64,000 nt of DNA from Thiotrichales bacterium (GTDB taxonomy: Bacteria > Pseudomonadota > Gammaproteobacteria > UWMA-0217): positions 13,359-77,358 of the forward strand of contig JBHJOI010000067.1 in the NCBI GenBank assembly GCA_050329935.1. Direction: 5' to 3'. The notes below the pieces were generated by a model, which saw only the letters and a list, made by a program, of their open reading frames with translations, was not told the origin of the DNA and did no database searches. The position numbers were made by a program, and so were the translations under genes. Of this stretch, positions 46,360 through 64,000 are shown one piece after another. Position 1 is the stretch's first letter. The number at the start of each line of letters is the position of its first letter.

Positions 46360-46363
46360 GGGC

Positions 46364-47647
46364 TCAGTCCGGTTCGAGGTTGGCGGGTGGGCGTTTGATC
46401 GCCACGATGCGTGCCGTCTTCACCATGTTGTCGGCGGTCTTGATGATTTCCACCGGGTAGCCGGCGATCAGTAACGAGGTGGCCGCGTCCGGGATTATTT
46501 CAAGGCGTTCGAAAATCAGGCCATTCAGCGTGCGCGGGCCGTCGGTTGGCAACTCGATTCCGAGAATCCGATTCAGTTCGCGAAGACTGAGGCTTGCGTC
46601 GACGATGAAGCTGCCGTCGGCCTGCGGATGAACCTCCTGCGGGTAGACTCGGCCCTGGGTTTCGAATTCGCCGACGATTTCCTCAAGAATGTCCTCGAGC
46701 GCGACCAGGCCGAGAATGTCGCCATACTCATCGACAACCAGCGCGTGCCGGCGTCGTTCGCGGCGGAAATTGGTCAGCTGCTGCGTCAGCGAAATGCTCT
46801 CCGGGATGAAGTAGGGCGGCAACATCTGCCGCTCGATTTCCTCCTCGCTCAGCCTGTCCTTGGCCATCAATGCCGTGATATGGCGCATGTGGATATAGCC
46901 GACGGTGTTGTTGATGTGACCGCGATACACCGGCATTCGGGTAAACGGCATCGACCGCAGCAGTGCCTCGATGTCGCTCCAGTCGGCATCGAGATCGATC
47001 CCGATGATGTCCGAACGCGGCACCATCACGTCCGCGACCGTGACCTTCTCAAGGTCGAGAATGCGCAGCAACATCTCGTGGTGACTGTCATGAATCAGGC
47101 CGCTGGCTTCATTGACCACTGTGCGCAGTTCGTCGGCGCTGAGCCTATGGGTTTCGTCACGCTGTCCCGAGACCCCGAGCAACCGCAACAAACCGCTTGA
47201 GAACAGGTTGACGAACCAGACCAGCGGAAAGGCGACTTTCATCAACGGGGTGTAGACGTAGCTCGCGGCATAACCGACGCGTTCGGAATGCAAGGCGCCG
47301 ATGGTCTTGGGCGTGACTTCGCCGAAGATCAACAACAGGAAGGTCAACACGCCGGTCGCGATCGCGATGCCCTTGTCCTGATATAGGAGGTAGCCGATAT
47401 AGGTCGCGACCTGGGTGATCAGAATGTTGATGAAATTGTTTCCGATCAGGATCAGGCCAATCAGCCGCTCGGGCCTGTTCAGCAATGCCTGGGCAAGACG
47501 CGGTCCCCGCTGTCCAGCCTCGGCCTTGTGCTTCAGCTTGTAGCGGTTGAGCGACATCAGCGCGGTCTCCGATCCGGAGAAAAACGCCGATAACATGAAC
47601 AATACGATCAGTAAACCGAATAGCCAGCCTAGTGAGGGAGCTTCCAT
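46364..47647 (-). CDS. HlyC/CorC-family transporter (CNNM/DUF21 TM domain + CBS pair + CorC_HlyC), YfjD-like
   Basis: Domain order and size (427 aa). Confidence 0.85.
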   Translation of the reverse strand: MEAPSLGWLFGLLIVLFMLSAFFSGSETALMSLNRYKLKHKAEAGQRGPRLAQALLNRPERLIGLILIGNNFINILITQVATYIGYLLYQDKGIAIATGVLTFLLLIFGEVTPKTIGALHSERVGYAASYVYTPLMKVAFPLVWFVNLFSSGLLRLLGVSGQRDETHRLSADELRTVVNEASGLIHDSHHEMLLRILDLEKVTVADVMVPRSDIIGIDLDADWSDIEALLRSMPFTRMPVYRGHINNTVGYIHMRHITALMAKDRLSEEEIERQMLPPYFIPESISLTQQLTNFRRERRRHALVVDEYGDILGLVALEDILEEIVGEFETQGRVYPQEVHPQADGSFIVDASLSLRELNRILGIELPTDGPRTLNGLIFERLEIIPDAATSLLIAGYPVEIIKTADNMVKTARIVAIKRPPANLEPD

Positions 47648-47702
47648 CGCTTACAGTGGTTTCCGTTGGAATCGTCGATGAGAGGTAATCAATTGGCCAG
47701 CG

Positions 47703-48560
47703 TTAAGTGGTCGGGGCGAGAATGATTTCGATGACCAACTTGCTGCCAAAATACGCCAACATCAGCAGCGAAAATCCGACTAGGGTCCAGCGTATCGCGG
47801 TGCGCCCACGCCAGCCAAGACGCCACCGGCCCAGCAGCAACGCGCCAAAAATGAACCATGCAGCGATCGACAACACCGTCTTGTGTACGAGATGCTGGGC
47901 GAAAATATTCTCGAGAAACATAAAACCCGACACGAGCGCGAGACTCAGCAGCAAAAAGCCCGCCCCGATCAGCTGAAACAGAAAATGTTCCATTGGCTGC
48001 AGCGGTGGCAGCAAACTCATCCAGCCCGTCACGCGATGACCGCGGAGCTGGTGATCCTGGTAGGCCAGCACCAACGCTTGTAGGGTCGCGAGGCTCAGCA
48101 GCGAATACGCCAGCAGCGAGCCCACCACATGGAGCTGCAACCCCGGCGGGGCGATGATGATGTGCTTGCCGATCGACGGGTGCAGCAAGGCCAGCAGTGC
48201 CAGCACCAGCGCGGTCGTCGGCAGCAGCGGCACCGCGAGGGCGTGCACGGGCATCCGCAGCGACGAAATCCACAGCAGCAGACTCACCAGCCACGCCACC
48301 ATCGACAGCGCGTTGTAAAGGCAAAGATCGAGTCCATCGGGGCGCACCAGCGTTTGCCCAAGCACCAGCGCGTGCGCGAGTATCGCCACCGACCACAGCC
48401 AGAGCGCCACCGGCGGCGCGGCCTTTTGGTGCTGACGCAGGCCGCGAAGGATCAGTCCGGCGCTTACCAGATAGGCCAGGATCGCGAGCACGGTAATGGA
48501 ATGGGTTATCACTTCGAGGTCCGAAACGCTTTGCTGACGTGTTCGCCGATGATAACCCAA
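47703..48560 (-). CDS. Cytochrome c assembly (CcsA-like) family inner-membrane protein, YpjD-like
   Basis: Polytopic membrane protein, divergent from ffh as ypjD is in E. coli. Start uncertain. Confidence 0.65.
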   Translation of the reverse strand: MGYHRRTRQQSVSDLEVITHSITVLAILAYLVSAGLILRGLRQHQKAAPPVALWLWSVAILAHALVLGQTLVRPDGLDLCLYNALSMVAWLVSLLLWISSLRMPVHALAVPLLPTTALVLALLALLHPSIGKHIIIAPPGLQLHVVGSLLAYSLLSLATLQALVLAYQDHQLRGHRVTGWMSLLPPLQPMEHFLFQLIGAGFLLLSLALVSGFMFLENIFAQHLVHKTVLSIAAWFIFGALLLGRWRLGWRGRTAIRWTLVGFSLLMLAYFGSKLVIEIILAPTT

Positions 48561-48666
48561 ACCTCGGCGGCTTCGTCAGCGGCATCGGCGCCGCCGCCCT
48601 GCCGGTTCGGCCGCGAAAAGGCTATAATCCCGCGCCTCTACCGATGGACCACCGGCGCTTTCAACC

Positions 48667-50025
48667 ATGTTCGACAGTCTGACCGAACGCCTTTCAGCCA
48701 CCGTCAAACGCCTGCGCGGGCAGGCCCGCCTGACCGAAGACAATATTCAGGACACGCTGCGCGAAGTGCGGATGGCCTTGCTCGAGGCCGATGTCGCGCT
48801 CCCCGTGGTGCGCGATTTGATCGCCAAGATCAAAGAACGCGCGATCGGCGCCGAGGTGCTGACCAGCCTGACGCCGGGCCAGGTGTTCATCAAAATCGTC
48901 AACGACGAGCTGACCGCCTTGATGGGCGAGGCCAATACCGGCATCGCGTTCGATGCGCGGCCACCGGTGGTCATCCTAATGGCCGGCTTGCAGGGATCGG
49001 GCAAGACCACCAGCTCCGCCAAGCTCGCGCGCTGGCTCAAGGAGCGGCACAAAAAATCGGTGATGATGACCAGTTGCGACGTGTCCCGCCCCGCCGCGAT
49101 CCAGCAGTTGGAGACGCTCGCGAAAGAAGTCGGCGTCACCATCTACCCCTCCGCGGTCGGTGACGACCCGGTTGAAATCGCGGCCGAGGCGGTCGCGGCC
49201 GCGCGGGTGCAGCAAAAGGACGTGCTGATCGTCGATACCGCCGGTCGGCTGCACATCGACGCCGAGATGATGGACGAAATCAAGCGCATTCATACGGCGA
49301 TCCGTCCCGGCGAGACCTTCTTCGTGGTCGACAGCATGACCGGCCAGGACGCCGCGAACACGGCCAAGGCCTTCAACGACGCCCTGCCGCTGACCGGCGT
49401 GATCCTCACCAAGGCCGACGGTGACGCCCGTGGCGGCGCCGCGCTCTCGGTGCGCCACATCACCGGCAAACCGATCAAGTTCCTCGGCATGGGCGAAAAG
49501 ACCGCGGCGCTTGAGCTGTTCCACCCTGAGCGCATCGCCTCGCGCATCCTCGGCATGGGCGACATCGTCAGCTTCGTCGAAGAAGCCCATTCGCGTGTCG
49601 ACAAGGAAAAAGCCGAGAAGCTCGCGAAGAAGATCCAGAAGGGCAAGAGCTTCGATCTGGAGGATCTGCGCGAACAATTCCTGCAAATGAGCAAGATGGG
49701 CGGCATGGCCAGCCTGCTCGACAAGCTGCCCGGCGGCGTCAACATCCCCGACGCCGTCAAGAGCCAGGTCAACGACAAACAGTTCGATCGCATGATCGCG
49801 ATCATCAATTCGATGACCCCGAAAGAGCGCCGCACCCCCGATTTGATCAATGGCTCGCGCAAACGGCGCATCGCCGCCGGCTCCGGCACCCAGATCCAGG
49901 ACGTCAACCGCCTGCTCAAGCAGCACCTGCAAATGAGCAAGATGATGAAAAAACTCAAGGGCGGCGGGATGCAGAAACTCATGCGCTCGATGAAAGGCCG
50001 CATGCCGCCGGGAATGCCGTTCTAA
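48667..50025 (+). CDS. ffh: Signal recognition particle protein Ffh
   Basis: NG domain GLQGSGKTT, DTAGR, and a Met-rich M domain at the C-terminus. Confidence 0.95.
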   Translation: MFDSLTERLSATVKRLRGQARLTEDNIQDTLREVRMALLEADVALPVVRDLIAKIKERAIGAEVLTSLTPGQVFIKIVNDELTALMGEANTGIAFDARPPVVILMAGLQGSGKTTSSAKLARWLKERHKKSVMMTSCDVSRPAAIQQLETLAKEVGVTIYPSAVGDDPVEIAAEAVAAARVQQKDVLIVDTAGRLHIDAEMMDEIKRIHTAIRPGETFFVVDSMTGQDAANTAKAFNDALPLTGVILTKADGDARGGAALSVRHITGKPIKFLGMGEKTAALELFHPERIASRILGMGDIVSFVEEAHSRVDKEKAEKLAKKIQKGKSFDLEDLREQFLQMSKMGGMASLLDKLPGGVNIPDAVKSQVNDKQFDRMIAIINSMTPKERRTPDLINGSRKRRIAAGSGTQIQDVNRLLKQHLQMSKMMKKLKGGGMQKLMRSMKGRMPPGMPF

Positions 50026-50076
50026 AGCGTGCCCACACTTGCCAGCGCGCGCCGCCGGGATGAGAATTGGCGCACT

Positions 50077-50149
<73 letters not shown>

Positions 50150-50152
50150 TTC

Positions 50153-50184
50153 AAAAAACCAACCGTTCTCGGTTGGTTTTTTTT
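50153..50184. terminator. Strong bidirectional rho-independent terminator AAAAAACCAACCG-TTCT-CGGTTGGTTTTTTTT
   Basis: 13-bp perfect stem with a tetraloop, flanked by an A-run and a T-run. Lies immediately 3' of the tRNA. Confidence 0.75.
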
Positions 50185-50189
50185 GCCTG

Positions 50190-51029
50190 TTCCCCCCCGT
50201 GTTGGCGAGGGTTCGAGCCTTGCCGCGACGGACGTCGTCGCTCCGGACAGCCCCGTTGCGGGCGGGTTTTCTTTTTCAGTTCCCGCATTGGGTGTGCTGG
50301 TTCGTCATCTCTCAGGTGGGTGCGGGTCATCGAATGCTTGATCAGGTCGTAGCAACCAGCATCCGTGATGACCTTGACGACGTCAGCCTTGGTTTTCCAA
50401 ATGTACGGGTTCTCGATGGTGAAAGGCCCGCCCGCCACCAGCGAGACGATGTCCTGGAAGCCCTTTATCACCCCTGGGATGCGTCGTCCGGGGGGCGCGG
50501 CCACCGACCACTTGGGCGCACACCGGCAGGTTCAGGCTGATCACGCCGTTCTCGTTGAAGCGCACCCTCTGGAAGTTGAGCATCCGGCCAATCGTCGCGT
50601 CGATGGAGACATACAGGAATGACCGGCTGCGCTGGGTGTACTCGTGGTTCAACTCTTTGGTCTTGTGGACCTGAACGGTATTGCGGTGCGGCACGTTGTC
50701 GCCGGTTTTCTGCGCCAGCATCTTTTCCAGGGTGCGGTGACGTTTTTTTGCTCATAGCCTGCGAATCCGTCCGAAGATTTTCTATAAATATCAACGCCAT
50801 AATGAACCCGGTGCTGTGAGAAACACTCGGTTGAAAACTTCTCGACGATGACCGACGCCTCTCGGGTATGCGTTTCCAGCGCCGCATTGAACTGGGCGGA
50901 CTGATTCATCGTCGCAAAGCGCATTCCATTGCCAAGTTGCGTGTTGACGACCTTGCTCAGGAAATACTGGAGCCCCTCATTGGCAAGCGTGCTCGATTCT
51001 GCGTAAATCAAAATATCACCCATTAACAC
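50190..51029 (-). pseudogene. Degraded gene split across three reading frames (51029-50760, 50721-50383, 50504-50190). Fragments resemble the middle and C-terminal regions of QueC-family PP-loop ATPases.
   Basis: Fragment C: FQDIVSLVAGGPFTIENPYIWKTKADVVKVI, compare E. coli QueC [31 protein letters not shown]. Fragment B has VPHRN, compare QueC VPGRN. The three fragments are collinear on the minus strand. Confidence 0.4.
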
Positions 51030-51075
51030 CCATTCCGACGCTGCGTGGCTTCAAAATGGGCGTTAATGGGTGTGG
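51018..51075. promoter_or_regulatory. 18-bp inverted repeat CACCCATTAACACCCATT / AATGGGCGTTAATGGGTG (one mismatch) with a 22-bp spacer, in the divergent region upstream of fic
   Basis: Seen directly. Overlaps the first in-frame ATG of the fic ORF. Confidence 0.4.
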
Positions 51076-51085
51076 TTTTGGTTGC

Positions 51086-52135
51086 ATGCTACGTTCAGAC
51101 ACCCTCCAGATCACCCCCGAGATCCTGAGCCTGATTGCCCGGATCGACGAATTCAAAGGCGCATGGCGGGCCTTGGGAACGCTCGCGCCCGAGCGTCTTT
51201 CAGCGCTGCGGCGGGTTACGACCATTGAAAGCATCGGCTCGTCCACCCGTATCGAGGGCAGCAAGCTGACTGACCGAGAAGTGGAGCGCCTACTCTCCAA
51301 CCTGGCCGTTCAGTCCTTCGACACCCGCGACGAGCAGGAGGTAGCCCGTTACGCCGAGTTGATCGATCTGGTGTTCAGCGCGTGGCAGGACATCCCGTTC
51401 AACGAGAACCACATCAAGCAACTGCACCAGATCCTGCGGCGCCACAGCGAAAAGGATGCGCGCCACCGGGGACAGTACAAGACCCATTCGAACAGCGTCG
51501 CCGCCTTCGATGAAAACGGAACTCAGATCGGGATCGTCTTCGAGACCGCCACGCCGTTTGACACGCCACGGTTGATGGCCGAATTGGCGTCGTGGGTGAA
51601 TGACGAGCGGGAGAAGGGGCATCTGCACCCCTTGTTGATCATTGCGATCTTCGTGGTGGTGTTTCTGGAAATTCACCCCTTTCAGGATGGCAACGGGCGT
51701 TTGAGCCGGGTACTGACGACCCTGCTGCTGATCCAGTCCGGTTACGCCTATGTGCCGTACTGCTCGCTGGAGAGTGTGATCGAGCTGAACAAGGAAGCCT
51801 ATTACTCGGCCCTGCGCCAGACACAGGGCACCATCCGCGCGGAGGCTCCCAACTGGCAGCCTTGGCTGGTGTTCTTCTTGCGTTCGCTGACCGAGCAGGT
51901 TCGGCGTTTGGAGAAGAAGGTCAAGCGCGAAAAGATCGTGCTGGCCGCACTGCCCGCGTTGTCACTGCAGATCGTGGAATTTGCCCGAGAGCACGGGCGC
52001 GTCACGATGATGGATGCCGTAAAACTGACCGGAGCCAGCCGCAACACCTTGAAGCAACACTTCCGCGACCTGACCGAGCGCAACCATCTGGAGCAGCACG
52101 GCAGCGGACGCGGTGTGTGGTACGGGCTGAAGTAA
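51086..52135 (+). CDS. Fic family protein (Fido domain, HPFQDGNGRLSR motif) with a C-terminal winged-helix domain
   Basis: Canonical Fic motif HxFx(D/E)GNGRxxR. Start could be 51056 or 51086. Confidence 0.8.
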   Translation: MLRSDTLQITPEILSLIARIDEFKGAWRALGTLAPERLSALRRVTTIESIGSSTRIEGSKLTDREVERLLSNLAVQSFDTRDEQEVARYAELIDLVFSAWQDIPFNENHIKQLHQILRRHSEKDARHRGQYKTHSNSVAAFDENGTQIGIVFETATPFDTPRLMAELASWVNDEREKGHLHPLLIIAIFVVVFLEIHPFQDGNGRLSRVLTTLLLIQSGYAYVPYCSLESVIELNKEAYYSALRQTQGTIRAEAPNWQPWLVFFLRSLTEQVRRLEKKVKREKIVLAALPALSLQIVEFAREHGRVTMMDAVKLTGASRNTLKQHFRDLTERNHLEQHGSGRGVWYGLK

Positions 52136-52441
52136 CGCAGTCGGGTTTTGGGAATCGAACTGGCGTCCGCAGCGCGCGACCTGGCAGCTCAAACCACGCT
52201 ATACCTGAGACCGAGGTCATGCTTGCTCTCGGACCTGGCAAGGCGATGGCTAGCTTTGTTGTCAACGACGATTCCCGAGAACGTGCTTCCCAGTAACGTC
52301 ATCCGCTTCGGATCGTGGCCGCTGGCACTTCTGGTTTGGCGGGTGAGAAATGCCGAGGCCGGCGCTTGGCGTTCGACGTGAGGCGTGTTTTGCACTTCGG
52401 AGTCCGACTTTCGGCGAACTTGCCTTATTCTTGTCGATGTT

Positions 52442-53911
52442 ATGACCCTAGATTTCGCCACCCTCGATGCCCTGCGCACGCACCATCCCGCGTGGCGATT
52501 GTTGCGTTCTGACCATGCCGCATTGGTGGCGAGTTTTTTGCATCGGGTTTTCGTGGCACCCAACGTGCGGGTAATGGCGGCGGCCGATCTTGCCGAGCTG
52601 CTAGAAGACGAGCTGTATGCGCTGCGCTTGCAACTGGGCGAGGCGGCGTTTCCGAAACCCGCGCTGGAGTACCTGAACGATTGGGCCGCGGCGGACAAGG
52701 GCTGGCTGCGCAAGTTCTACAAGCCCGGCACCGATGAGGCGCAGTTCGATCTGACGCCGGCCACCGAGAAGGCGATCGCCTGGTTGTTGCAACTTGCCGA
52801 GCGCCAGTTCGTGGGCACCGAGTCGCGGTTGCTCACCTTGTTTGCCTTGCTGAAACAAATGAGCGAGGGCAGCGAGACTGATCCGGAAAAGCGTATCGCC
52901 GAGCTGCACCGCAAGCGCGGCGAACTGGACGCCGAGATCGCGCGGGTGCTGGCTGGCGATGCGCCGCTACTGGACGATACGGCGCTGAAGGACCGGTTCC
53001 AGCAATTCATGCAGGGTGCGCGCGAGTTGCTCACCGACTTTCGCGAGGTGGAGCACAACTTCCGCCAGCTCGATCGGAGCGTGCGTGAACGCATCGCGTT
53101 GTGGGAGGGGAGCAAGGGCGAGTTGCTTGAAGAGATCATGGGCGAGCGCGACGCGATCGCCGATTCCGACCAAGGCAAGAGTTTCCGTGCGTTCTGGGAC
53201 TTTTTGTTGTCCAGCCGTCGCCAGGAGGAGCTGAGCGCGTTGTTGGAGCGGGTGCTGACCTTGCCGGCCGTGGCTGCGTTGCGACCGGATGCCCGCACTC
53301 GCCGCGCGCACTACGATTGGATGGAGGCGGGTGAGCACACCCAGCGCACCGTGGCGGCCTTGTCCCAGCAGTTGCGTCGCTTTCTCGATGATCAGGCCTG
53401 GTTGGAGAACCGGCGCATCATGGACATTTTGCATGGCATCGAGAGCAAGGCGCTGGCGTTGCGAGCATCACCACCTACCGGCATGGTGATGGAAATGGCG
53501 GAGTCGTGTGCCGACGTCGAGTTGGCGATGGAGCGACCCTTGTTCACGCCAGCGGTGAAACCCGTGATCAATAGTCTGATTTTGCCGGCGGGGGACGCGG
53601 ACATCGATCCGTCGGCCCTGTTCGACCAAGTGGTGGTGGACAAGGCACGGCTGACCCGCCATATCCGCCGCGCTTTGCAGGACAAGGCCCAAGTCACGCT
53701 GCGCGAGTTGGTGGCTACCCAGCCGCTACGGCATGGCCTGGCCGAGTTGGTCGCCTATCTGCAACTCGGCAGCGACAGCTTCAACGCGGTGATGGACGAG
53801 GACTCACCCGAGTCCGTGCACTGGCAGGCCCGGGCGGCGACTGGTGAACCCGTGACCCGATCCGCGCGGCTGCCCCGGGTGATCTTCATGCGCGGATCCG
53901 GAACAACTTGA
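52442..53911 (+). CDS. jetA: Wadjet JetA-like (DUF3375 / MukF-like kleisin) protein
   Basis: About 490 aa, first gene of a four-gene operon with the JetABCD size profile. Family call from architecture and recollection. Alternative start at 52385. Confidence 0.75.
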   Translation: MTLDFATLDALRTHHPAWRLLRSDHAALVASFLHRVFVAPNVRVMAAADLAELLEDELYALRLQLGEAAFPKPALEYLNDWAAADKGWLRKFYKPGTDEAQFDLTPATEKAIAWLLQLAERQFVGTESRLLTLFALLKQMSEGSETDPEKRIAELHRKRGELDAEIARVLAGDAPLLDDTALKDRFQQFMQGARELLTDFREVEHNFRQLDRSVRERIALWEGSKGELLEEIMGERDAIADSDQGKSFRAFWDFLLSSRRQEELSALLERVLTLPAVAALRPDARTRRAHYDWMEAGEHTQRTVAALSQQLRRFLDDQAWLENRRIMDILHGIESKALALRASPPTGMVMEMAESCADVELAMERPLFTPAVKPVINSLILPAGDADIDPSALFDQVVVDKARLTRHIRRALQDKAQVTLRELVATQPLRHGLAELVAYLQLGSDSFNAVMDEDSPESVHWQARAATGEPVTRSARLPRVIFMRGSGTT

Positions 53912-53930
53912 ATCGAGTATTTGAAGTCGG

Positions 53931-54626
53931 ATGAAACAAGCGTTCACCATCGAGCCGGCGACGACGGCGCCAACGCCTGATCTGTCGGTGCTGTTGATCG
54001 GTTTGCTCAAAGGCGTGCTCTACCGTGAGAGCGATGAGCGCCAATGGGCGGCATTGCTGAATTTGCAGGCGCGGGTACGGGATTTCGTCGCGGTGCTCAA
54101 TCTGGATTTGATCCTGGACGAGGCCGAGGGGTATGCCTTTCTGAAAGGTCGTCCCGAGCCGGCCGCGGACGATCCGGCGCCGCGACTGCCGCGCCTGGTT
54201 GCCCGCCGACCCTTGTCGTTTCCGGTGAGTTTGTTGTTGGCCTTGCTACGCAAGAAGCTGGCCGAGTTCGACGCGGGCGGCGGCGACACTCGGTTGGTGC
54301 TCACCCGCGACGAGATTGTCGATCTGGTGCGGGTGTTTCTGCCCGTGGGTCCCAACGAGGCCCGGTTGATTGATCAAATCGAGTCCACGATTAACAAGGT
54401 CGCCGAACTCGGCTTCCTGCACAAACTCAAACCCGCCGGCGGGGCCTCGGGGCCGCCGAGTTACGAAGTCCGACGCATCCTTAAGGCGTTTGTCGATGCG
54501 CAATGGTTGGCCGAATTCGATGCTCGACTGGCGGTGTATCGGTCCGCGCTGTCGGACCTGGTCGGTGGCCAGTCGGCGTCGCCGAGGGCGGGTGAAGAGG
54601 CCGCGGCGAGCGAGGTCGCGCCATGA
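53931..54626 (+). CDS. jetB: Wadjet JetB-like (DUF4194 / MukE-like) protein, 231 aa
   Basis: Size and position between jetA and the SMC-like ATPase. 4-bp overlap with jetC. Confidence 0.7.
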
Positions 54627-57600
54627 GTGAGTCGCAATCCCTCGCGCTGGACTTCTTAGCCGACGACGCGTTGTCGGGGTTTCGATTGACGCGTCTGGAA
54701 GCATTCAACTGGGGCACGTTCGACGGCCAGGTATGGACGCTGCAACTTGACGGCAAGAATGGTTTGCTGACTGGCGACATCGGTTCCGGTAAATCCACCC
54801 TGGTCGACGCGATCACCACGCTGCTGGTGCCGGCCAATCGGATCGCGTACAACAAGGCCGCCGGCGCGGACAGCAAGGAGCGCAGCCTGCGTTCCTACGT
54901 GTTGGGGCACTACAAATCCGAGCGCAACGAAGTCACCGGCGCGGCCAAGCCTGTGTCGTTGCGCGACCACAACAGCTACTCGGTCGTACTGGGCGTGTTT
55001 CATAACGCCGGTTACGACCAGACGGTGAGTCTGGCGCAGGTGTTCTGGATGAAGGATCCACAGGGACAGCCGGCGCGCTTTTTTCTCGGGGTGGAACGCG
55101 AATTGTCGATTTCGGTCGATTTCGCCAATTTCGGCGCCGACATCGCCACGTTGCGCAAAAAACTGCGGGCGCTGGGGGCCGATCTGCACGACAGTTTTCC
55201 ACCTTACGCCGCCTGGTTTCGCCGTCGCTTCGGCATCGAGAACGATCAGGCGCTCGAGTTGTTCCACCAGACGGTGTCGATGAAATCGGTGGGCAATCTG
55301 ACCGATTTCGTCCGCAGCCACATGCTGGAGCCGTTCGAGGTCGCCCCGCGCATTCAGGCGCTGATCGGCCATTTCGATGATCTCAACCGCGCGCATCAGG
55401 CGGTGCTCAAGGCGCAGCGGCAAGTGGAACTGCTGACGCCGCTGGTGGCTGACTGTGCTCGTCACGCCGAACTGGTGGCGGAAGTGAACCACTTGCGCCA
55501 CTGTCGCGAAAGTCTGCGCGCGCACTTCGCCCGCCTGAAGTTGGCGTTGCTCGACAAACGCCTCGGCTTGCTGGAGGACGAATGGCACAAGGCCGATGGG
55601 CAGGCGCGGCGGCTGGAGCTCGCGCGCGAGACACAAGACCAGCAAGTCGATGCGCTGAAGCAGGCCATCAGCGACAACGGCGGCGATCGCCTGGAACGGC
55701 TCGCCGCCGAGATCCGCGTCAAGGAACACCTGCGGGATGCACGCCAGTCCAAGGCCGCGCGGTATGTCGAACTCGCGGCCATGCTCGGCGAACCCAATGC
55801 GGCGGACGTTGCCGCGTTCTCCGCGCAGCGGGCGCGCTTCAAGGGTTGGCGTGAGACGCTTCGCAATCGCGATGCCGATTTGCAAAACGCACTGACGGAG
55901 CACAGCGTGAGTCTGCGCCAGGGCAAGCTGGAGCATGACCAACTCAGCGCCGAGATCGGCAGCCTCAAGCGCCGGCGTAGCAATATCGACGACCAACAAA
56001 TCCAGATTCGCACCGCGCTGTGCGCCGCATTGCGGATGGACGCCGATGACATGCCATTCGTTGGCGAGTTGATCCAGGTCCGCGAGGATGAGCGCGATTG
56101 GGAAGGTGCGGCCGAACGTCTGCTGCGAGGCTTCGGCCTGGCGTTGCTGGTGCCGGACGAGCACTACCCGCGCGTGGCCGAGTGGGTGGATGCCAGCCGT
56201 TTGCGCGGGCGTCTGGTGTATTTCCATGTGCGTCCCCGTAAGGCGGCGGAATTGCCCGGACTGCATCGGGATTCACTGGTACGCAAGCTCGCCATCAAGC
56301 CGGATACGTCCCATTACGACTGGCTGGAGCGTGAGCTTGCGCACCGTTTCGATGTCGCGTGCTGCGCGACGCAAGCGCAGTTCCGCCGCGAAACGCGCGC
56401 CATCACCCGCGCGGGCCAGATCAAGGACCCCAGCGGCCGGCACGAGAAAGACGATCGCCACCGCATCGACGACCGCGGCCGCTACGTGCTCGGCTGGAGC
56501 AACAGCGCCAAGATCGCCGCGCTGGAGGGCAAACTTCGCCAGCTTGAGCACCGCTTGGGCGAACTCGGAAGCCAGATCGGGGCGATCGAGGCCGAGCGCG
56601 GCGGACTCCAGAGTCGGCTCGACGCACTCACGCGCCTGGAGGAGTTCACGACCTTCGACGAACTCGACTGGCCGAGTGTGGCGGCGGCCATTGCCGCGCT
56701 CGAAGACGAGCGCCGGCAGTTGGAATCAGCCTCCGACATCCTCAAGCAATTAAATGAACGCCTGCGGGAACTGCGTCAAACGCTACGGGATACCGAAACC
56801 GAACTACGCACCGCGCGTGACAAGCGCGCCAAGGTGGAGCAGCGACGCTCGGATGCGCGTGAACTGCGTCAGCAGACCGCCGCGCTGATCCCGGACGTGG
56901 CCGTGGACAACGCGCTGTCAGCGACGCTGGAAGCCCTGCGCGCCGAGGCCCTGGGCGAGCATCAATTGACCGTCGAATCCTGCGATCACCGCGAGCAGGA
57001 CGTGCGCGCCTTTGTACAGGCGCGGATCGACGCGGAGGATGCGCGGCTCAAGCGCCTGGCCGAAAAGATCATCAAGGCGATGGCGTCGTTCAAGGACGCG
57101 TTCAAACTCGAAACGGCCGAGATCGACGCCAGCCTCGAAGCGGCCTTCGAGTATGAGAATCTGCTCACGCAGTTGAATCGCGATGACCTGCCGCGTTTCG
57201 TGGCACGCTTCAAGGAGCTGCTGAACGTCAACACGATCAACGAAATCGCGAACTTCAATGCACAGCTGGCGCGCGAGCGCGAAACTATCAAGGAGCGAAT
57301 CGCGCACATCAACAAGTCCCTCGGCGAGATCGATTACAACCCGGGCCGCTACATCGTGCTGGAATCACAAGCGAGCCCCGACGCCGAGATCCGTGATTTT
57401 CAGCAGGATCTACGCAGCTGCACCGAAGGCGCGGTCACGGGTTCCGAGGATGTGCAGTATTCGGAGGCCAAGTTTCTGCAAGTCAAATCCATCATCGATC
57501 GGTTTCGCGGCCGCGAGGGCTTGTCCGAGCAGGATCGACGCTGGACCGCGAAGGTCACCGACGTGCGCAACTGGTTTCTGTTCGCCGCCAGCGAGCGGTG

Positions 57601-58015
57601 GCGCGAGGACAACACCGAGCACGAACATTATTCCGACTCGGGCGGCAAATCGGGTGGGCAGAAAGAGAAACTGGCCTACACCATCCTCGCCGCTAGCCTG
57701 GCCTACCAGTTTGGCCTGGAGTGGGGCGCGGTGCGTTCGCGTTCGTTCCGATTCGTCGTCATCGACGAGGCGTTTGGCCGGGGCTCGGATGAGTCCGCTC
57801 AGTACGGCTTGAAGCTGTTCCGGCAACTCAACCTGCAATTGCTGATCGTCACGCCGCTGCAGAAGATCCACATCATCGAGCCGTTTGTATCCAGTGTCGG
57901 CTTCGTGCACAACGAGGGCGGTCGCGCGTCCAAACTGCGCAACCTGTCCATCGAGGAGTATCGGGCACAGAAGTCGGCCATCACCTCGCGGGCGACACCG
58001 GTGGTCATGCGGTGA
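54623..58015 (+). CDS. jetC: Wadjet JetC-like SMC/MukB-like ABC ATPase (1130 aa)
   Basis: N-terminal Walker [15 protein letters not shown], a long coiled-coil middle, C-terminal signature/Walker [14 protein letters not shown]. Confidence 0.85.
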
Positions 58016-59190
58016 CCTGGACCACGCCCCGGGAACTCAAGGCACAGCTCGCGCGACTGTGGACGCGGGGGGAATTGCTGCGCGACGTCGTGACCGGAAA
58101 CACGCGCTTCCCATTGCGGCTGACTTGCAAGGGTCCAGGCTCGGCGGACATCACGGATCGTTTCGATCGGGTGCGCGCGTGGGCAACGGAGCTGGCGAGC
58201 GCCGCCCCGTTGCGGGTGGAGTGGCAGGACGTGCGTCACCGGGTTCAAGGCGCGCAACGCTTGCCGAGTAGCGTTTGGATCGACTCGGCGGAGCGCGCGG
58301 TCGCATGGCTCGGGAAACTGCGCGACTGGGAACGCTTTGCCAACCAGGTCGAGCAGACGCGGCAACTTGAACCCTTGCTATTGCCCTGGCTCGCGAAGCG
58401 TCCCCTGCAAGCACTGGAACGGGTCGACGAGTGGCCGCGTCTGATGGCGGTGGTGGACTGGCTCAAGCGCCATCCGCGGCCGGATATCTATTTGCGTCAA
58501 GTCGAATTGCCCGGCGTGCACAGCAAATTCATCGAGGCTCATCGCGCGGTGTTGAGCGAGTTGCTCGACCTGGCCTTGCCCGCCGCCTGCGTGGATGCCG
58601 CGAAAACCGGGGCCAGCCAGTTTGCGGCCCGATACGGCTTTCGCGAGAAGCCCGCTCGGATTCGCTTCCGAATACTCGACCCAGGGATTCCATGCGTGCC
58701 GGGTGCCCCCTGTCCCGATCTCACGCTCGACGCCGAGAGCTTTAGCCGGCTCGCGCTCGAGGTTCAGCGGGTGCTGATCACCGAGAATGAAACCAACTTT
58801 CTCGCGTTGCCCAACGTCACCGGAGCGATCGCCATCTTCGGGGCTGGATACGGTTGGGATACCTTGGCGCGAGCCCGCTGGCTGACGCGGTGCGCGATCC
58901 ACTATTGGGGCGATATCGATACCCACGGGTTCGCGATCCTGGATCAATTGCGAGGTCATTTTGGCCACGTCAGATCGCTGTTGATGGACCGCGCCACCCT
59001 GGAGGCGCATGCGGCCAGTTGGGGAATCGAAGATCGGCCGCTGCGCGTCGATTTGCATCGGTTGACGCCGGAGGAACTCGATTTGTACGACGAACTGCGC
59101 GACAACCGCATCCGCAAGGGGCTGCGGTTGGAGCAGGAACACCTCGGCTTTGGCTGGGTACGCGACCGGCTCGATCGGCTATCGTGGTGA
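58012..59190 (+). CDS. jetD: Wadjet JetD-like (DUF2220, topoisomerase VI-A-like Toprim nuclease) protein, 392 aa
   Basis: Toprim-like [13 protein letters not shown] motif near the C-terminus. 4-bp overlap with jetC. Confidence 0.8.
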
Positions 59191-59242
59191 GCCAGGCTGT
59201 AACCGACCGTGACACGGCATGAAAGTCAGGCGGTCGCGTGAG

Positions 59243-59968
59243 TCAATACGCGCGAATCCAGGCGATGATGAACGGCACGAGTAGGGCGGTCGCAACGCCA
59301 TTGAGGCCCATCGCCAGCGCCGCGAATGCGCCCGCGACCTCGCTGACCTGGAACGCGCGCGCCGTACCGATGCCGTGCGCGGCGACACCGAGCGCGAAAC
59401 CGCGTATGGCGGGATCTTCGACCCGGATCGCGTTGAGTAGCGGACGCGCAAGCACCGCGCCGATGATGCCGGTGCTGATGACGAGCACGGCCGTGAGTGA
59501 CGGCAAGCCACCGATTTTCTCCGTGATACCCATCGCGATTGGGGTGGTCACGGATTTTGGCGCCAGTGACATGACCGTCGCGGGCGCGGCGCCGAGGGCC
59601 CAGCCGATTGCCAGCGCGGAGACGATCGCGGTCAGCGCGCCGGCGATCAGCGCGATCAGTAGCGGTATCAGCATTGCCCGCAATCGCGCCATTTGCGCGT
59701 AGAGCGGAATCGCCAGCGCAACCGTGGCGGGTCCGAGCAGAAAATGTACGAATTGAGCGCCGTCGAAATACGTTTTATAAGGCGTGCCGGTCACCAGCAA
59801 AACCAACAATACAATGGTCACGGCAATCGCAACCGGATTGGCCAGCGGGTTCATGCCGGAACGAGAGTAAAGCCAGAACGCCGCTTGATAGGCCAACAAT
59901 GTCAAGGTCAACCCTAGCAGCGGGGTCGTCGACAGATAAACCCATATTTGATCGATTGGCATCGGCAT
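59243..59968 (-). CDS. lrgB: LrgB/CidB family membrane protein
   Basis: Polytopic membrane protein directly after the lrgA-like gene. Classic two-gene arrangement. Confidence 0.7.
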   Translation of the reverse strand: MPMPIDQIWVYLSTTPLLGLTLTLLAYQAAFWLYSRSGMNPLANPVAIAVTIVLLVLLVTGTPYKTYFDGAQFVHFLLGPATVALAIPLYAQMARLRAMLIPLLIALIAGALTAIVSALAIGWALGAAPATVMSLAPKSVTTPIAMGITEKIGGLPSLTAVLVISTGIIGAVLARPLLNAIRVEDPAIRGFALGVAAHGIGTARAFQVSEVAGAFAALAMGLNGVATALLVPFIIAWIRAY

Positions 59969-60312
59969 TAGGGTTTCCCTCGCGCGAGCAGGGCACGCAA
60001 TACCCATGCCGTAACCACCAGTGTGAGCGCCGTGCTACCCACCAAGGCGGCAATGATCGGTAACCACTCCGCGGCGATCAAATCGCCATGCACCATCACA
60101 CCAACGCCGGCGGGCACGAACAACAGGGATAGATGTCGCAGCAAACCATTGGCGGTCGTGCGTAAGCTTGCGCTTGCCTCGCCGCGGAATATCAACGTGA
60201 CAAACAATAGCAACATACCGACCACGGGTCCCGGAATCGGTAATCGCAATAACTGCGCCGCGACTTCGCCAACGAGTTGGTACACCAGCAATAAGGTGAG
60301 CGCGCCGATCAT
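59968..60312 (-). CDS. lrgA: LrgA/CidA holin-like protein (114 aa, 4 TM)
   Basis: Size, hydrophobicity and pairing with lrgB. Confidence 0.7.
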   Translation of the reverse strand: MIGALTLLLVYQLVGEVAAQLLRLPIPGPVVGMLLLFVTLIFRGEASASLRTTANGLLRHLSLLFVPAGVGVMVHGDLIAAEWLPIIAALVGSTALTLVVTAWVLRALLARGKP

Positions 60313-60535
60313 AACGCCTCGCGAGACTTTAAAGCTTGATTCTAACGACTGCGACGACGGGATTCATCCGTCGCTGGCGGCTGGACGGCAAGCAGCGCAT
60401 CAATCGCGGCGCTGGGTCGCGCGCTGATTTGATCAGCGCTGTGTGATGGCGGTCAGGCTTGCTAAATGGCCACGCAACACGTCGTGGCCACCGGATGATG
60501 GCCTTGGCAAATGCGCCGTCAAATGGGCGCGATCG

Positions 60536-60883
60536 TTAGATCGTGGGAAGATTTTCGAGTTTGCCGCCGTTCTCGAGATAATCCCTTAACCACTTTGGCT
60601 TTTGACCTCTATTGGAGCTGCTCCAGGTCATGGCACGGTCTTTCGGGTTGTGATAAAGGACACTATCCGGTTTCGTCGTGGCGGCTTTGGGTTGCTTCGA
60701 TGACGCGGGTGCTTTTTGCGTCTTTGCGCCTCGCGAAACTCCGAGTTCATCGGCGGTGAACCCATAAATCTGAATCAGGTTGCGGGCTTCTTCCAATGCG
60801 CTGGGGCGCTGTTCATTGAGAATGCGGGTTTTCTCAGCGAGTAGCTGATCGATCTTGGCCTGGATTTCGTCGAGACTTGGCAT
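60536..60883 (-). CDS. H-NS/MvaT-like nucleoid-associated protein (about 115 aa from MPSLDEIQAKID)
   Basis: N-terminal coiled-coil. C-terminal DNA-binding motif TWSSSNRGQKPKW matches the H-NS TWTGQGRTPxW core (here RGQ rather than GQGR). Confidence 0.65.
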   Translation of the reverse strand: MPSLDEIQAKIDQLLAEKTRILNEQRPSALEEARNLIQIYGFTADELGVSRGAKTQKAPASSKQPKAATTKPDSVLYHNPKDRAMTWSSSNRGQKPKWLRDYLENGGKLENLPTI

Positions 60884-61464
60884 AGGTTTGGTTCGGTAAA
60901 TGGTTAAGGAACGATTGAAATTTTGCAATCGATTGTTGAACTGGCACAGTACGTGGATCGCGTCTTGCGGAGTAATCAGCGTTGGTCAACGCAGTATCCA
61001 TAAGATGCACGCCGATTTCATCCCGTGGCGGAAAGCCGACGAAAAACTGCATCTTCATGGAGTCATTAATTATAATTGACCGCGCAATGGAGCCGCAACG
61101 ATCCATGGGCTAGCGTAGCGGGTTCATTAGTTGGATGTCAACTTTGGCCTACGCCGCAAGCGCAATTCGTTTCAATTAGGTCGTGCCTCGGTCTGCCGAT
61201 TGCATTCGGCGAACCCGCGAGCGACCGAGGGATATTGTCCGAGCTACGGGCGATTGTATGATCAACGATGCGAATCGACCGCGAGACAATTCGTATCGCC
61301 GAATAGTGGGCCGAAATACCGATGCGTGCTCGAGTGCGTTGGAAGCCTCGCGGCGGCTGTTGTAATGCGGAGTGAACACCCTCAAACAAGTGCATTCATG
61401 GGTGATATCAGGCTCACCGGTGAATTGGGTTTGGTTAAATAACCTTCGCCGGTAACGATCAGGT

Positions 61465-62049
61465 TCATGGATTGAATCGTCCCAGAACCTCGGGAGGACC
61501 GTCCGCGCTTGGTTTGAATACGATGATTTCTCCGGCTGCGGCGTGTCGACCCGTCAACGCCGTGATGTTGACCTGATGGGTCACCAGTATTGTCGGACCG
61601 ACGCGATCGGATCTCGTTAGAAAAGTATGTAGCGCGGCGTTTTGTTCCGGTCCTCGTCCCGGCGCTTCAAAAAAGGAATTGAGCGCCGGCAATGCCTCGA
61701 CCGGTCCCAGCTCCAGCAATCGGGCCGTATCGAGACAGCGGCACCACTGGCTAGAAAGCACCTGGACGCGCTCGATGCCCTGGCTACGAATAAACGCGCC
61801 GATTCGACGGGACTGCGCGCGGCCTTTTGCCGAAAGATTGCGTTGCGTCGCGCAATCCTCGATCTGGAATTCCGGAGGATCCCCGATTCCGGGCGCGTCG
61901 GCGTGGCGTATGATCACGAAAGCCTCACCCGTTTGCACCGCTTGCCATGTTTGCGCCGGCGATTGCGCGAGCGCGTATCCCGCGCCGGCGATTGGAATCA
62001 ACAAGCCAATCAGGCTTAAATATTGGTGACGGCGGCGGCGAGTGGCCAT
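61465..62049 (-). CDS. Histidine phosphatase (phosphoglycerate-mutase superfamily) protein with a signal peptide
   Basis: RHADAPG catalytic motif (RHG). Confidence 0.7.
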   Translation of the reverse strand: MATRRRRHQYLSLIGLLIPIAGAGYALAQSPAQTWQAVQTGEAFVIIRHADAPGIGDPPEFQIEDCATQRNLSAKGRAQSRRIGAFIRSQGIERVQVLSSQWCRCLDTARLLELGPVEALPALNSFFEAPGRGPEQNAALHTFLTRSDRVGPTILVTHQVNITALTGRHAAAGEIIVFKPSADGPPEVLGRFNP

Positions 62050-62239
62050 GGGTCTTGCAGTTCAAATTCAAGCAGTAAAGCGGTGGGGCATGAGTGATTA
62101 TAAATTAGCTCGGGTTGCCGAAGGCGCTATCTCACGGATTCGAAGGTGTTGTTACGGCTGGGCAAAGTGAAGTGGATCCCGAATGGGCGGCGCGCACATG
62201 CTCCCTGGCGCGGGATTTATGTCCAATCGGTGGCAGCGT

Positions 62240-63865
62240 TCAATGCGCCTTCGCCAGCGCGCGAAAGTTCACGCCCGCCAAGCGCAATGTCAGTAAATAC
62301 GCGATCGCACCGACGCCGATCAGTGTCGCGAGGCGGAGCGCGCGTTGACCGGCGTGCCATTGTTCCCAAACCGTCAGCGCCGGTGTGAGCCACCACAATG
62401 CGAGCCCCATGACGAGCAGGGCGAGCGTGACTTGCAGCGTTAACCGCGCCCAGCCGAACTGAGGAACGTAACTGCCGTCGCGGCGCAGGCGGTGGAACAA
62501 TTGACCGGCGTTGACCGCCGCGGCACAAACGGTGGCGGAGGCGAGCACGGCGTGCGGAGCGGGGAGGTCGAGCAATACCCATGGCACGACGATGATGGCG
62601 CAATACACCAGATTGACGCCGACCGAGATAATGCCGGTCTTGACCGGGGTGCGGGTGTCCTGGCGAGAGAAGAATCCGGGCGCAAGAATCTTGATCAAAA
62701 CGAAGAACGGCAGTCCGAGTGCGTAGACCGCGAGGCTGAGCGAGGCCATGTGCGAATCGTGGGCCGTGAACTGGTCGTATTGCAGCAGGGTGGCGAAGAT
62801 CGGGCGGGCGAGCAGCATCAATCCGAGCATCGCCGGCAGGCTAACGACCATCGCGAGGCGCAGCCCCCAATCGAGGGTTTCGGTGAACGCGCGCTTGTCC
62901 TGGCGGGCGTGCTCGGAAGACAGTTTGGGCAAAATCACGGTGGACAGCGCGACCCCGAAAATGGCCATCGGTAGCTCCACGAAGCGGTCGGTGTAATACA
63001 GCCAGCTAATGCTGCCGGCGACCAGGAACGAGGCGATCACGGTGTTGATGAGCAGGTTGATCTGTGCCACCGAGGAGCCGAACAGCGCGGGCAACATGAG
63101 TGTCATGATGCGTTTGACGCCCGCGTGAGCCCGTTTGAGGCGTGGCCGGGGCAGCAAGCCGAGGCGGATCAGCGCGGGGAATTGAAATGCCAATTGCAGT
63201 ACACCGGCGCCAAACACACCCCAGGCGAGCGCCACCACGGGATCCTCGAGTCGCGGCGCGAGCCATAGCGCCGCGGCGATCAGCGCAAGGTTGAGCAGGG
63301 TCGGGGTGAACGCGGGCACCGCGAATCGGCCGTAACTATTGAGGATGCCTCCGGCGAGGGCCGTCAGTGAAATGAACAATACGTAGGGAAAGGTCAGCCG
63401 CAGCATGTCGACGGTGAGCGCTTGTTGATCCGGCGCGCTGGCGAAGCCGGGCGCAAACACCCAGATCAGCCACGGCGCGGCGAGGATACCGACGCTGGTG
63501 ATCACGATCATCACCACCGCGAGCCAGCCGGTAACATGGTCGACCAGGTCTTGCACGTCGGCGGCGGTGCGATTCTCCTTATACTCGCTGATGACCGGGA
63601 CAAATGCCTGGGCGAACGCGCCCTCGGCGAACATGCGGCGCAGCAGATTCGGAATCCGAAACGCAACGAAGAAGGCATCGGTGGCGCCGGTGGCGCCGAA
63701 ACCAATCGCGATGACCATGTCGCGCAGGTAACCCAGTATGCGCGAGATCATCGTCATGCCGCTGACGACAGCGGTCGACTTGAGCAATTTACGACTCAAT
63801 CTAACTCCAGTGTAGGGGGTGGCCTCGCCGCCGATAGTGGACGCTTGACCCGGCTGAGGGGACAC
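62240..63865 (-). CDS. murJ: Lipid II flippase MurJ (MviN)
   Basis: N-terminus ...LLKSTAVVSGMTMISRILGYLRDMVIAIGFGATGATDAFFVAFRIPNLLRRMFAEGAFAQAFVPV aligns with E. coli MurJ. The true start is probably a few codons inside the listed ORF. Confidence 0.85.
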   Translation of the reverse strand: MSPQPGQASTIGGEATPYTGVRLSRKLLKSTAVVSGMTMISRILGYLRDMVIAIGFGATGATDAFFVAFRIPNLLRRMFAEGAFAQAFVPVISEYKENRTAADVQDLVDHVTGWLAVVMIVITSVGILAAPWLIWVFAPGFASAPDQQALTVDMLRLTFPYVLFISLTALAGGILNSYGRFAVPAFTPTLLNLALIAAALWLAPRLEDPVVALAWGVFGAGVLQLAFQFPALIRLGLLPRPRLKRAHAGVKRIMTLMLPALFGSSVAQINLLINTVIASFLVAGSISWLYYTDRFVELPMAIFGVALSTVILPKLSSEHARQDKRAFTETLDWGLRLAMVVSLPAMLGLMLLARPIFATLLQYDQFTAHDSHMASLSLAVYALGLPFFVLIKILAPGFFSRQDTRTPVKTGIISVGVNLVYCAIIVVPWVLLDLPAPHAVLASATVCAAAVNAGQLFHRLRRDGSYVPQFGWARLTLQVTLALLVMGLALWWLTPALTVWEQWHAGQRALRLATLIGVGAIAYLLTLRLAGVNFRALAKAH

Positions 63866-63880
63866 CCTAGCATCGCCGCA

Positions 63881-64000
63881 ATGTCAGACGCCTCGCCACT
63901 CAATCTGGTCGCCGCCGAGATGCGGGCGGTCAACCAACTCATCATCCAGCGCCTCAGCTCGGATGTCGTCCTGATCAATCAGGTGGGCCATTATATCGTC
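63881..64000 (+). CDS. ispB: Octaprenyl-diphosphate synthase IspB, N-terminal fragment (runs off window)
   Basis: MSDASPLNLVAAEMRAVNQLIIQRLSSDVVLINQVGHYIV aligns with the E. coli IspB N-terminus (LTAQDMAGVNAAILEQLNSDVQLINQLGYYIV). Confidence 0.6.
   Translation, partial: MSDASPLNLVAAEMRAVNQLIIQRLSSDVVLINQVGHYIV

Follow-up and report, generated by a model that had tools for sequence, protein, structure and literature searches.

An intact type I Wadjet (JetABCD) defense operon predicted in an uncultured sulfur-oxidizer-like gammaproteobacterium

We analyzed a 64,000-nucleotide stretch of DNA from a Thiotrichales bacterium (hereafter, the window), in which four adjacent genes run in the same direction on the plus strand in the order jetA, jetB, jetC and jetD, an arrangement verified from their coordinates. 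These genes and the features that precede them are listed below.

48667-50025: ffh (Pfam SRP54)
50076-50150, plus strand: tRNA-Ala (CGC), directly after ffh (ARAGORN; Rfam tRNA, 55 bits)
50151-51029, minus strand: QatC/QueC-like frameshifted remnant (pseudogene), whose frame switches from 1 to 0 and back to 1 in three-frame translation
51056-52135, plus strand: SoFic-like Fic-domain protein, a neighbor outside the Wadjet genes (Pfam Fic, 66 bits; start at 51086 according to the gene caller)
52442-53911, plus strand: jetA, kleisin (equivalent to MksF), 489 aa (DUF3375; PADLOC JetA1; solved JetA 8dk1 and 8q72)
53931-54626, plus strand: jetB, KITE subunit (equivalent to MksE), 231 aa (DUF4194; MksE; PADLOC JetB1; solved JetB 8dk1 and 8as8)
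54623-58015, plus strand: jetC, SMC/MukB-like ABC ATPase, 1130 aa (PADLOC JetC1; AAA_29; SbcC_Walker_B; solved JetC 8dk2 and 8as8)
58012-59190, plus strand: jetD, nuclease (equivalent to MksG), 392 aa with a GTG start (DUF3322; JetD_C; PADLOC JetD1; solved MksG 8b7f and JetD 8q72 and 7til)

An earlier note on this DNA had reported four genes, and the corresponding ORFs were all found (52385-53911, 53931-54626, 54623-58015 and 58012-59190), with sizes that agree exactly with the 508, 231, 1130 and 392 aa given there, the first counted from a GTG codon. It had also described the genes as linked by 4-bp overlaps. This holds for jetB/jetC (ATGA) and jetC/jetD (GTGA) but not for jetA/jetB, where 19 nt separate the jetA stop (53911) from the jetB start (53931). 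Although the open frame of jetA reaches upstream as far as the GTG at 52385, the ATG at 52442 is most likely its start codon, giving a 489 aa protein, based on three observations: the PADLOC JetA model begins only at residue 22 of the 508 aa ORF, a gene caller gives 489 aa on a near-identical public contig, and the nucleotide similarity to three related cassettes sets in exactly at this position. The four ORFs are real genes and not chance ORFs of a genome with 62% G+C, since each is matched over its full length by protein families (E-values from 1e-43 to 0); an antisense ORF (54656-56266; 536 aa) has no comparable family-match support. A simple scan for sigma-70 promoters and terminators returned none that were convincing around jetABCD, and the single promoter-like site was at the tRNA. 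Rfam detected nothing besides the tRNA.

Family assignments were obtained for all four proteins. JetA matches Pfam DUF3375 (PF11855; 518 bits, model positions 2-474 of 474) and PADLOC JetA1 (745 bits), while JetB matches DUF4194 (PF13835; 149 bits), the family MksE, "Condensin complex protein MksE" (PF21980; 51 bits), and PADLOC JetB1 (300 bits). JetC matches PADLOC JetC1 with 1663 bits over model positions 3-1119 of 1123, along with the Pfam families AAA_29 and SbcC_Walker_B. Finally, JetD matches DUF3322 (PF11795; 199 bits), JetD_C (PF09983; 187 bits) and PADLOC JetD1 (502 bits). The search with family HMMs proposed in the earlier note (DUF3375, DUF4194, AAA_29 and DUF2220) thus returned matches for every gene, DUF2220 corresponding to the JetD_C family, and the PADLOC annotation that it also proposed placed the four genes in type I Wadjet models. 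The subtype-1 models JetA1, JetB1, JetC1 and JetD1 are matched over essentially their entire length. Type I is favored over types II and III in that the best PADLOC models are all of subtype 1; JetC2 and JetD3 are matched only marginally, with 20 and 18 bits, respectively. In NCBIfam, no model matched the four Jet proteins.

The nucleotide-binding motifs attributed to the third gene are present in JetC, with the Walker A motif GDIGSGKST at residues 51-59 (GSGKST at 54-59, including K57) and the 13-residue C-terminal motif at 1044-1056. The signature motif SGGQ lies at residues 1010-1013 (S1010) and the Walker B motif VIDEAF at 1046-1051, with the catalytic pair D1048-E1049. These Walker A, signature and Walker B sequences do not vary among 21 homologues, and the residue aligned with E1049 in the Walker B mutant (EQ) construct 8dk1 is Q. 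In agreement with the SMC architecture put forward earlier, residues 19-1114 form a single continuous alignment to the solved full-length JetC proteins (8dk2 and 8as8), including heads, arms and hinge. Inspection of the central region (residues 480-620) revealed no CxxC zinc-hook motif. JetC is predicted to have long coiled-coil arms and a central hinge that is not a zinc hook. We base this architecture on the sequence alignment because the AlphaFold2 model, built from 21 close homologues, has a mean pLDDT of only 44.8, a confidence too low to allow a fold search, and is supportive only; in this model, long helices (241-469 and 620-901) flank a mixed region spanning residues 480-620.

The Toprim-like motif of 10 residues noticed in the fourth gene was located at JetD residues 298-307. 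Residues E258, D301 and D303 of JetD align with E248, D290 and D292 of the E. coli protein, and none of the three varies across 38 diverse JetD sequences. In the E. coli system, the JetD E248A substitution abolishes both restriction and cleavage (10.1101/2022.10.04.510915). The best solved match of JetD is MksG of Corynebacterium glutamicum (8b7f; 89 bits), in an alignment that spans residues 34-378 and pairs the Toprim motifs of the two proteins. All catalytic residues are kept (JetC K57, S1010-GGQ and D1048-E1049; JetD E258, D301 and D303).

Comparison with characterized systems showed that the type I Wadjet systems of E. coli GF4-3 (8as8, 8bfn and 8q72) and Pseudomonas aeruginosa PA14 (8dk1-3 and 7til) have the same four subunits, gene order and domain families, and that the Walker A, signature and Walker B motifs of JetC and the E...DxD Toprim triad of JetD are conserved with respect to them. 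Nevertheless, the operon belongs to a distant sequence clade: JetC scores about 200 bits against these proteins over an alignment of some 1,090 residues, and the scores of JetD and JetB are 56-62 bits and 25-26 bits, respectively. In addition, this clade best matches other PADLOC sub-models (PDLC00512, 00457, 00474 and 00530), and our searches found no solved or biochemically tested member of it. The MksBEFG system of C. glutamicum (8b7f; PMC10123090) is an anti-plasmid system of the same composition, but comes from an actinobacterial lineage and its proteins are only distantly related to those encoded here; as none of the solved chains of MksB, MksE and MksF were matched, this comparison refers to MksG alone. 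The MukBEF and MksBEF condensins are likewise built from SMC, kleisin and KITE subunits, and the MksE family is among those matched by JetB, but these condensins lack the JetD/MksG nuclease gene, which is intact in jetABCD.

Altogether, Pfam, PADLOC and solved-structure matches for all four proteins bear out the earlier call of a complete type I Wadjet system, and positions 52442-59190 very probably correspond to an intact type I Wadjet (JetABCD/MksBEFG/EptABCD) defense operon. This is an already known system, of which the present operon is a canonical and ordinary instance.

The operon lies 2.3 kb from the tRNA-Ala gene, behind the QatC-like remnant and the SoFic-like Fic gene. The conceptual 253 aa product of the remnant matches PADLOC QatC (46 bits; E-value 7e-13; model positions 183-320 of 453), its match to Pfam QueC reaching an E-value of only 0.11. 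The Fic neighbor matches SoFic, a single-gene defense protein in PADLOC (171 bits; model positions 30-346 of 361), and carries the active-site motif HPFQDGNGR. The jetABCD genes sit in a small defense-gene cluster of an uncultured sulfur-oxidizer-like gammaproteobacterium. The sulfur-oxidizer-like character ascribed to this genome is plausible, as the window encodes an FccB sulfide dehydrogenase (10388-11683) and the best Ffh matches come from a Thiotrichales MAG, Ectothiorhodospira and Thioalkalivibrio.

The earlier note placed the operon in a tRNA-linked island. The sequence bears this out only in part, with the tRNA-Ala gene upstream and defense-type genes in between, but the usual marks of an island were not found. 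No ORF between 50150 and 60400 encodes an integrase domain, and the search for att-like direct repeats from the tRNA to the jetD/lrgB boundary gave only short matches at chance level. There is no compositional shift either, the G+C content (0.63-0.64) and GC3 (0.75-0.80) of jetABCD being indistinguishable from those of ffh, murJ and other core genes. An empty site was not found: the 80 Ffh loci recovered from genome contigs all lack jet genes and lrgB on the downstream side of ffh, and even the tRNA-Ala is missing in the closest of them (a Thiotrichales MAG; 87% identity). Similarly, none of 80 LrgB loci in metagenome contigs, all with at most 73% identity, had jet or ffh neighbors.

The same four genes recur as a unit in bacteria from distant lineages, where their genomic surroundings are unrelated. 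We compared the operon with cassettes of three Betaproteobacteria, hosts of another class than that of the window: Azoarcus sp. DN11, Ferrovum sp. and Chitinimonas koreensis (loci L082, L084 and L086). Protein identities to these cassettes are 85-89% for JetA, 80-83% for JetB, 83-85% for JetC and 65-74% for JetD, and the DNA is 73-78% identical across exactly the four genes, from the jetA ATG at 52442 to the jetD stop codon. The genes flanking these cassettes are entirely different from those in the window, and are other defense or toxin-antitoxin genes (HigB, an SNF2 helicase and AbiE; HipA with Phd/ParE; AbiEii with a Fic gene). The host Ffh protein is 87% identical to that of the closest Thiotrichales MAG and at most 76% identical to all others among the 80 loci. 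Considering that JetA, JetB and JetC are 80-89% identical across classes, that the cassette edges are exact, that the neighbors are unrelated and that Ffh, by contrast, exceeds 76% identity in only one genome, the jetABCD cassette was probably acquired horizontally. A near-identical public contig from a stromatolite, with 10 mismatches in 19,378 bases, also carries the operon; its JetA and JetB are identical to those of the window, and its JetC (H115Y) and its JetD each show a single substitution.

The resemblance of JetABC to MukBEF (review PMC10586767) and the match of JetB to the Pfam MksE family would fit an MksBEF-type condensin dedicated to folding or segregation of the host chromosome, with the fourth gene as an accessory and a main role other than defense. 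We regard this as very unlikely indeed, as the operon includes a full-length JetD/MksG gene that has an invariant Toprim triad and is translationally coupled to jetC, and the cassette is placed amid defense-type genes both here and in its relatives. Moreover, protein identities of 80-89% across classes and in unrelated contexts are unlike those of a core chromosome-maintenance gene. The SMC-like subunit could also be read as another coiled-coil ABC ATPase, belonging to SbcCD/Rad50 repair or to Lamassu (LmuB), given that NCBI homologues bear the name "ATP-dependent exonuclease SbcCD, C subunit-like" and that PADLOC LmuB gives a weak match. The chance of this is negligible, and the Pfam and PADLOC results effectively refute it: JetC1 scores 1663 bits against 59 bits for LmuB, the partners are a kleisin, a KITE subunit and JetD and not SbcD/Mre11 or LmuA, and the zinc-hook motif is missing from residues 480-620.

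A different possibility is that jetABCD, though undamaged in sequence, is silent or has decayed in function, as a relic of past transfer. The adjacent QatC-like gene is indeed frameshifted and the simple scan revealed no clear promoter upstream of jetA, but all four frames are uninterrupted, run end to end with the family models and keep every catalytic residue, and the copy on the stromatolite contig is equally undisrupted, which makes decay very unlikely. An intact type I Wadjet defense operon remains our preferred reading.

The mechanism of such an operon can be proposed by homology with the E. coli GF4-3, P. aeruginosa PA14 and C. glutamicum systems (10.1101/2022.10.04.510915; 10.1101/2023.11.03.565488; PMC10889018; PMC10123090; review PMC10586767). 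In homologues, small circular DNA is known to be restricted and cleaved in an ATP-dependent manner that needs all four subunits (10.1101/2022.10.04.510915; PMC10889018). Accordingly modeled, dimers of the JetC SMC ATPase would be bridged by the JetA kleisin and the JetB KITE subunit into a dimer-of-dimers motor, which would load on DNA and extrude loops driven by ATP. On small circular DNA, extrusion would run to completion and the two motors would stall against one another, bending the residual DNA so that the JetD Toprim nuclease dimer would be recruited or activated to cut it, while linear DNA and large chromosomes would escape cutting. By analogy, jetABCD may be expressed in this organism, and its products may assemble into a complex, extrude loops and restrict plasmids; as their kinship with the biochemically studied proteins is only distant, they may depart from them in quantitative respects, for instance in the size cut-off.

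The operon is part of a highly uniform Wadjet clade of proteobacteria. Across Beta- and Gammaproteobacteria, JetD drifts to 65-74% identity while JetA, JetB and JetC stay at 80-89%. It is conceivable, if rather doubtful, that this clade is a cassette spreading recently and widely, in which the faster evolution of JetD may stem from an arms race against anti-Wadjet factors encoded by plasmids, or from a changed substrate rule (for example, another cut-off in size or topology).

Roughly 5-10% of the genomes of bacteria contain a Wadjet system (PMC10586767), and the importance of the operon lies mostly in annotation, as one further instance in an uncultured, probably sulfide-oxidizing gammaproteobacterium of a stromatolite-type community. 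Should the organism be cultured, it would be predicted to resist transformation with small circular plasmids, and genetic work would then be eased by deleting jetD or jetC, or by choosing vectors that are linear or very large. With its exact edges and its similarity across classes, the cassette offers a clean, small example of a defense operon that travels as four genes and nothing more.

The four-gene operon at 52442-59190 on the plus strand is a canonical member of the known, widespread and mechanistically well-studied Wadjet family, with JetA as kleisin (MksF), JetB as KITE protein (MksE), JetC as SMC ATPase and JetD as Toprim nuclease (MksG). Its four ORFs have exactly the coordinates and sizes given in the earlier note:

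52385-53911, plus strand: jetA ORF, 508 aa from a GTG
53931-54626, plus strand: jetB ORF, 231 aa, ATG start
54623-58015, plus strand: jetC ORF, 1130 aa, ATG start
58012-59190, plus strand: jetD ORF, 392 aa, GTG start

The reading of these genes as a complete JetABCD system, proposed from the sequence alone, was borne out for all four products by Pfam, by the PADLOC type I models and by namesake structures in the PDB. In Pfam, JetA matched DUF3375 over the whole model length (518 bits), JetB matched DUF4194 (149 bits) and MksE (51 bits), JetC matched AAA_29 (82 bits) and SbcC_Walker_B (84 bits), and JetD matched DUF3322 (199 bits) and JetD_C (187 bits). The PADLOC models JetA1 (745 bits), JetB1 (300 bits), JetC1 (1663 bits) and JetD1 (502 bits) were each matched end to end; the type II and III models reached only ~20 bits with the jet proteins, and LmuB 59 bits. 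NCBIfam gave no match for any of the four. Among PDB entries, JetC matched 8dk2 and 8as8 in a single stretch (residues 19-1114), JetA matched 8dk1 and 8q72, JetB matched 8dk1 and 8as8, and JetD matched MksG of C. glutamicum (8b7f), JetD(E248A) of E. coli (8q72) and JetD of P. aeruginosa (7til).

Although the first gene is open for 508 codons, its most likely start is the ATG at 52442, predicting a 489 aa product, since three lines of evidence agree: the PADLOC JetA model begins at residue 22 of the ORF, a near-identical public contig has this gene called at 489 aa, and DNA similarity to three related cassettes starts at precisely 52442. The 4-bp overlaps described between the genes exist at jetB/jetC (ATGA) and jetC/jetD (GTGA) only, whereas a spacer of 19 nt (ATCGAGTATTTGAAGTCGG) separates the TGA of jetA from the ATG of jetB. 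Long spurious ORFs are common in a genome of ~62% G+C, and at the sequence level the four jet ORFs are validated by their family matches, not by their length. An ORF of 536 aa antisense to jetC (54656-56266, minus strand, ATG start), without family support, most plausibly reflects chance in G+C-rich DNA.

The three motifs quoted in the earlier note were located at residues 51-59 and 1044-1056 of JetC and 298-307 of JetD. When JetD is aligned with E. coli JetD(E248A), its E258 (in ITENE) pairs with the substituted alanine, and its D301 and D303 pair with D290 and D292; E248, D290 and D292 are the Toprim metal ligands of the E. coli protein, and restriction and cleavage are lost with either JetD(E248A) or JetC(E1022Q) (10.1101/2022.10.04.510915). 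Among 1.84 billion cluster representatives searched, 3,360 JetD relatives reached E ≤ 1e-3, and the 38 of them that were aligned (34-57% identity) all keep E258, D301 and D303. Seven relatives of 900-1000 aa (P0130, P0136, P0137, P0138, P0149, P0170 and P0189) carry the JetD part in their first ~390 residues, fused to a C-terminal extension of ~500 aa. K57, S1010-GGQ and D1048-E1049 of JetC are retained in all 21 homologues compared, and in 8dk1, a Walker B mutant construct from P. aeruginosa, the position aligned with E1049 is the Q. An AlphaFold2 prediction for JetC, of poor quality (pLDDT 44.8), places helices (241-469), a mixed region (480-620) and helices (620-901) between two alpha/beta heads; this secondary structure fits a folded-back SMC arm bearing a hinge and is supportive only. 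The sequence of the hinge region contains no CxxC zinc hook.

By analogy with Wadjet homologues (10.1101/2022.10.04.510915; 10.1101/2023.11.03.565488; PMC10889018; PMC10586767), we infer that the motor would extrude the whole of a circular plasmid and then stall, that the stalled motors would hold a bent residual DNA segment, and that JetD would bind and cleave this segment, while linear DNA and very large replicons would be spared; nothing in the sequence points elsewhere. JetC relatives are rare in the plasmid collection (49/72,556 records), and the best 15 of these 49 all fall on replicons between 480 kb and 2.1 Mb in size, namely a Thiodictyon plasmid and Ralstonia megaplasmids. These sizes are consistent with the report that Wadjet spares DNA above ~100 kb (PMC10586767).

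Positions 44623-64000 of the window are 99.95% identical, with the same gene order, to a stromatolite-metagenome contig in ENA (ERZ909567, k127_702690), whose JetC differs by one residue; the same operon is already in a public assembly. With one genome per species, the best match of Ffh (87%) is a Thiotrichales MAG, followed at ≤76% by Ectothiorhodospira, Thioalkalivibrio and other Gammaproteobacteria. The gene for FccB, the flavocytochrome c sulfide dehydrogenase flavoprotein (10388-11683, minus strand), and the nearby gene for a large multihaem cytochrome with MtrC/c7-like matches (12365-14362, minus strand) support a predicted sulfide-oxidising lifestyle. Given the Ffh matches and FccB, the description of the host as a sulfur-oxidiser-like gammaproteobacterium is reasonable.

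The surroundings of the operon include:

48667-50025: ffh, upstream
50076-50150: tRNA-Ala(CGC), upstream
50151-51029, minus strand: QatC-like remnant, between tRNA-Ala and the Fic gene
51056-52135, plus strand: Fic-domain protein (PADLOC SoFic, 171 bits, nearly full model)
52148-52381, plus strand: uncalled candidate ORF, 77 aa, TTG start
60536-60928, minus strand: H-NS-like gene

The stretch at 50151-51029 is a pseudogene remnant, probably of a decayed defence gene, because its reading frame switches twice and its conceptual product matches PADLOC QatC, the QueC-like protein of the Qat defence system (46 bits, E 7e-13), along no more than a third of that model (positions 183-320/453). The Fic protein retains an intact HPFQDGNGR motif, and its N-terminal STRIEG could be an inhibitory (S/T)xxxE(G/N) motif. 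An imperfect 36-nt inverted repeat (51006-51041 and 51048-51083; 78% complementary, 6-nt spacer), including CCCATTAACACCCATT and AATGGGCGTTAATGGGTG, lies between the start of the remnant and that of the Fic gene; it is a possible operator. The candidate ORF falls in the ~300 bp gap between the Fic gene and jetABCD; AS1, a small antitoxin, has been reported directly downstream of SoFic (PMC12249575). A simple scan for promoters and terminators picked up a single promoter-like site, at the tRNA. Downstream of jetD, lrgB and lrgA are convergent and 52 bp away, followed by the H-NS-like gene, a histidine-phosphatase-like gene and murJ. With a G+C of 0.50 and a GC3 of 0.57, the H-NS-like gene, whose product has a C-terminal H-NS domain (E 4e-6), is clearly below the rest of the window, and G+C at that end is lowest across 60-62 kb. 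The tRNA-Ala, the remnant and the Fic gene place the operon in a small defence-type cluster beside a tRNA. To this extent the tRNA-linked island proposed earlier stands, but no integrase, att-like repeat or compositional deviation was found at the jetABCD cluster.

By contrast with Ffh, JetC is 82-86% identical to more than 100 database clusters; their sources are Ferrovum, Azoarcus, Chitinimonas, Gallionella, Dechloromonas, Accumulibacter, Nitrotoga, Acidithiobacillus and others. In three such genomes (Azoarcus sp. DN11, Ferrovum sp. and Chitinimonas koreensis) jetABCD is kept as a block, with DNA identity of 73-78% running from the jetA ATG to the jetD stop. Identity to these cassettes is 85-89% for JetA, 80-83% for JetB and 83-85% for JetC, and JetD is markedly less conserved (65-74%). 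The flanking genes differ at all three: HigB, an SNF2 helicase and AbiE at one; HipA, a methyltransferase and Phd/ParE at the second; AbiEii and a Fic gene at the third. This last Fic gene (12757-13959 of the Chitinimonas locus) encodes a protein only 35% identical to that of the window over 111 residues. As a housekeeping protein is less conserved than the coiled-coil defence protein and the flanks are unrelated, the sequences are good evidence of horizontal transfer of the four genes as a bare cassette. The exact boundaries of this cassette and the cross-class uniformity of a clade with a faster-diverging JetD are mildly interesting, as are two neighbours, the SoFic-like gene and the QatC-like remnant.
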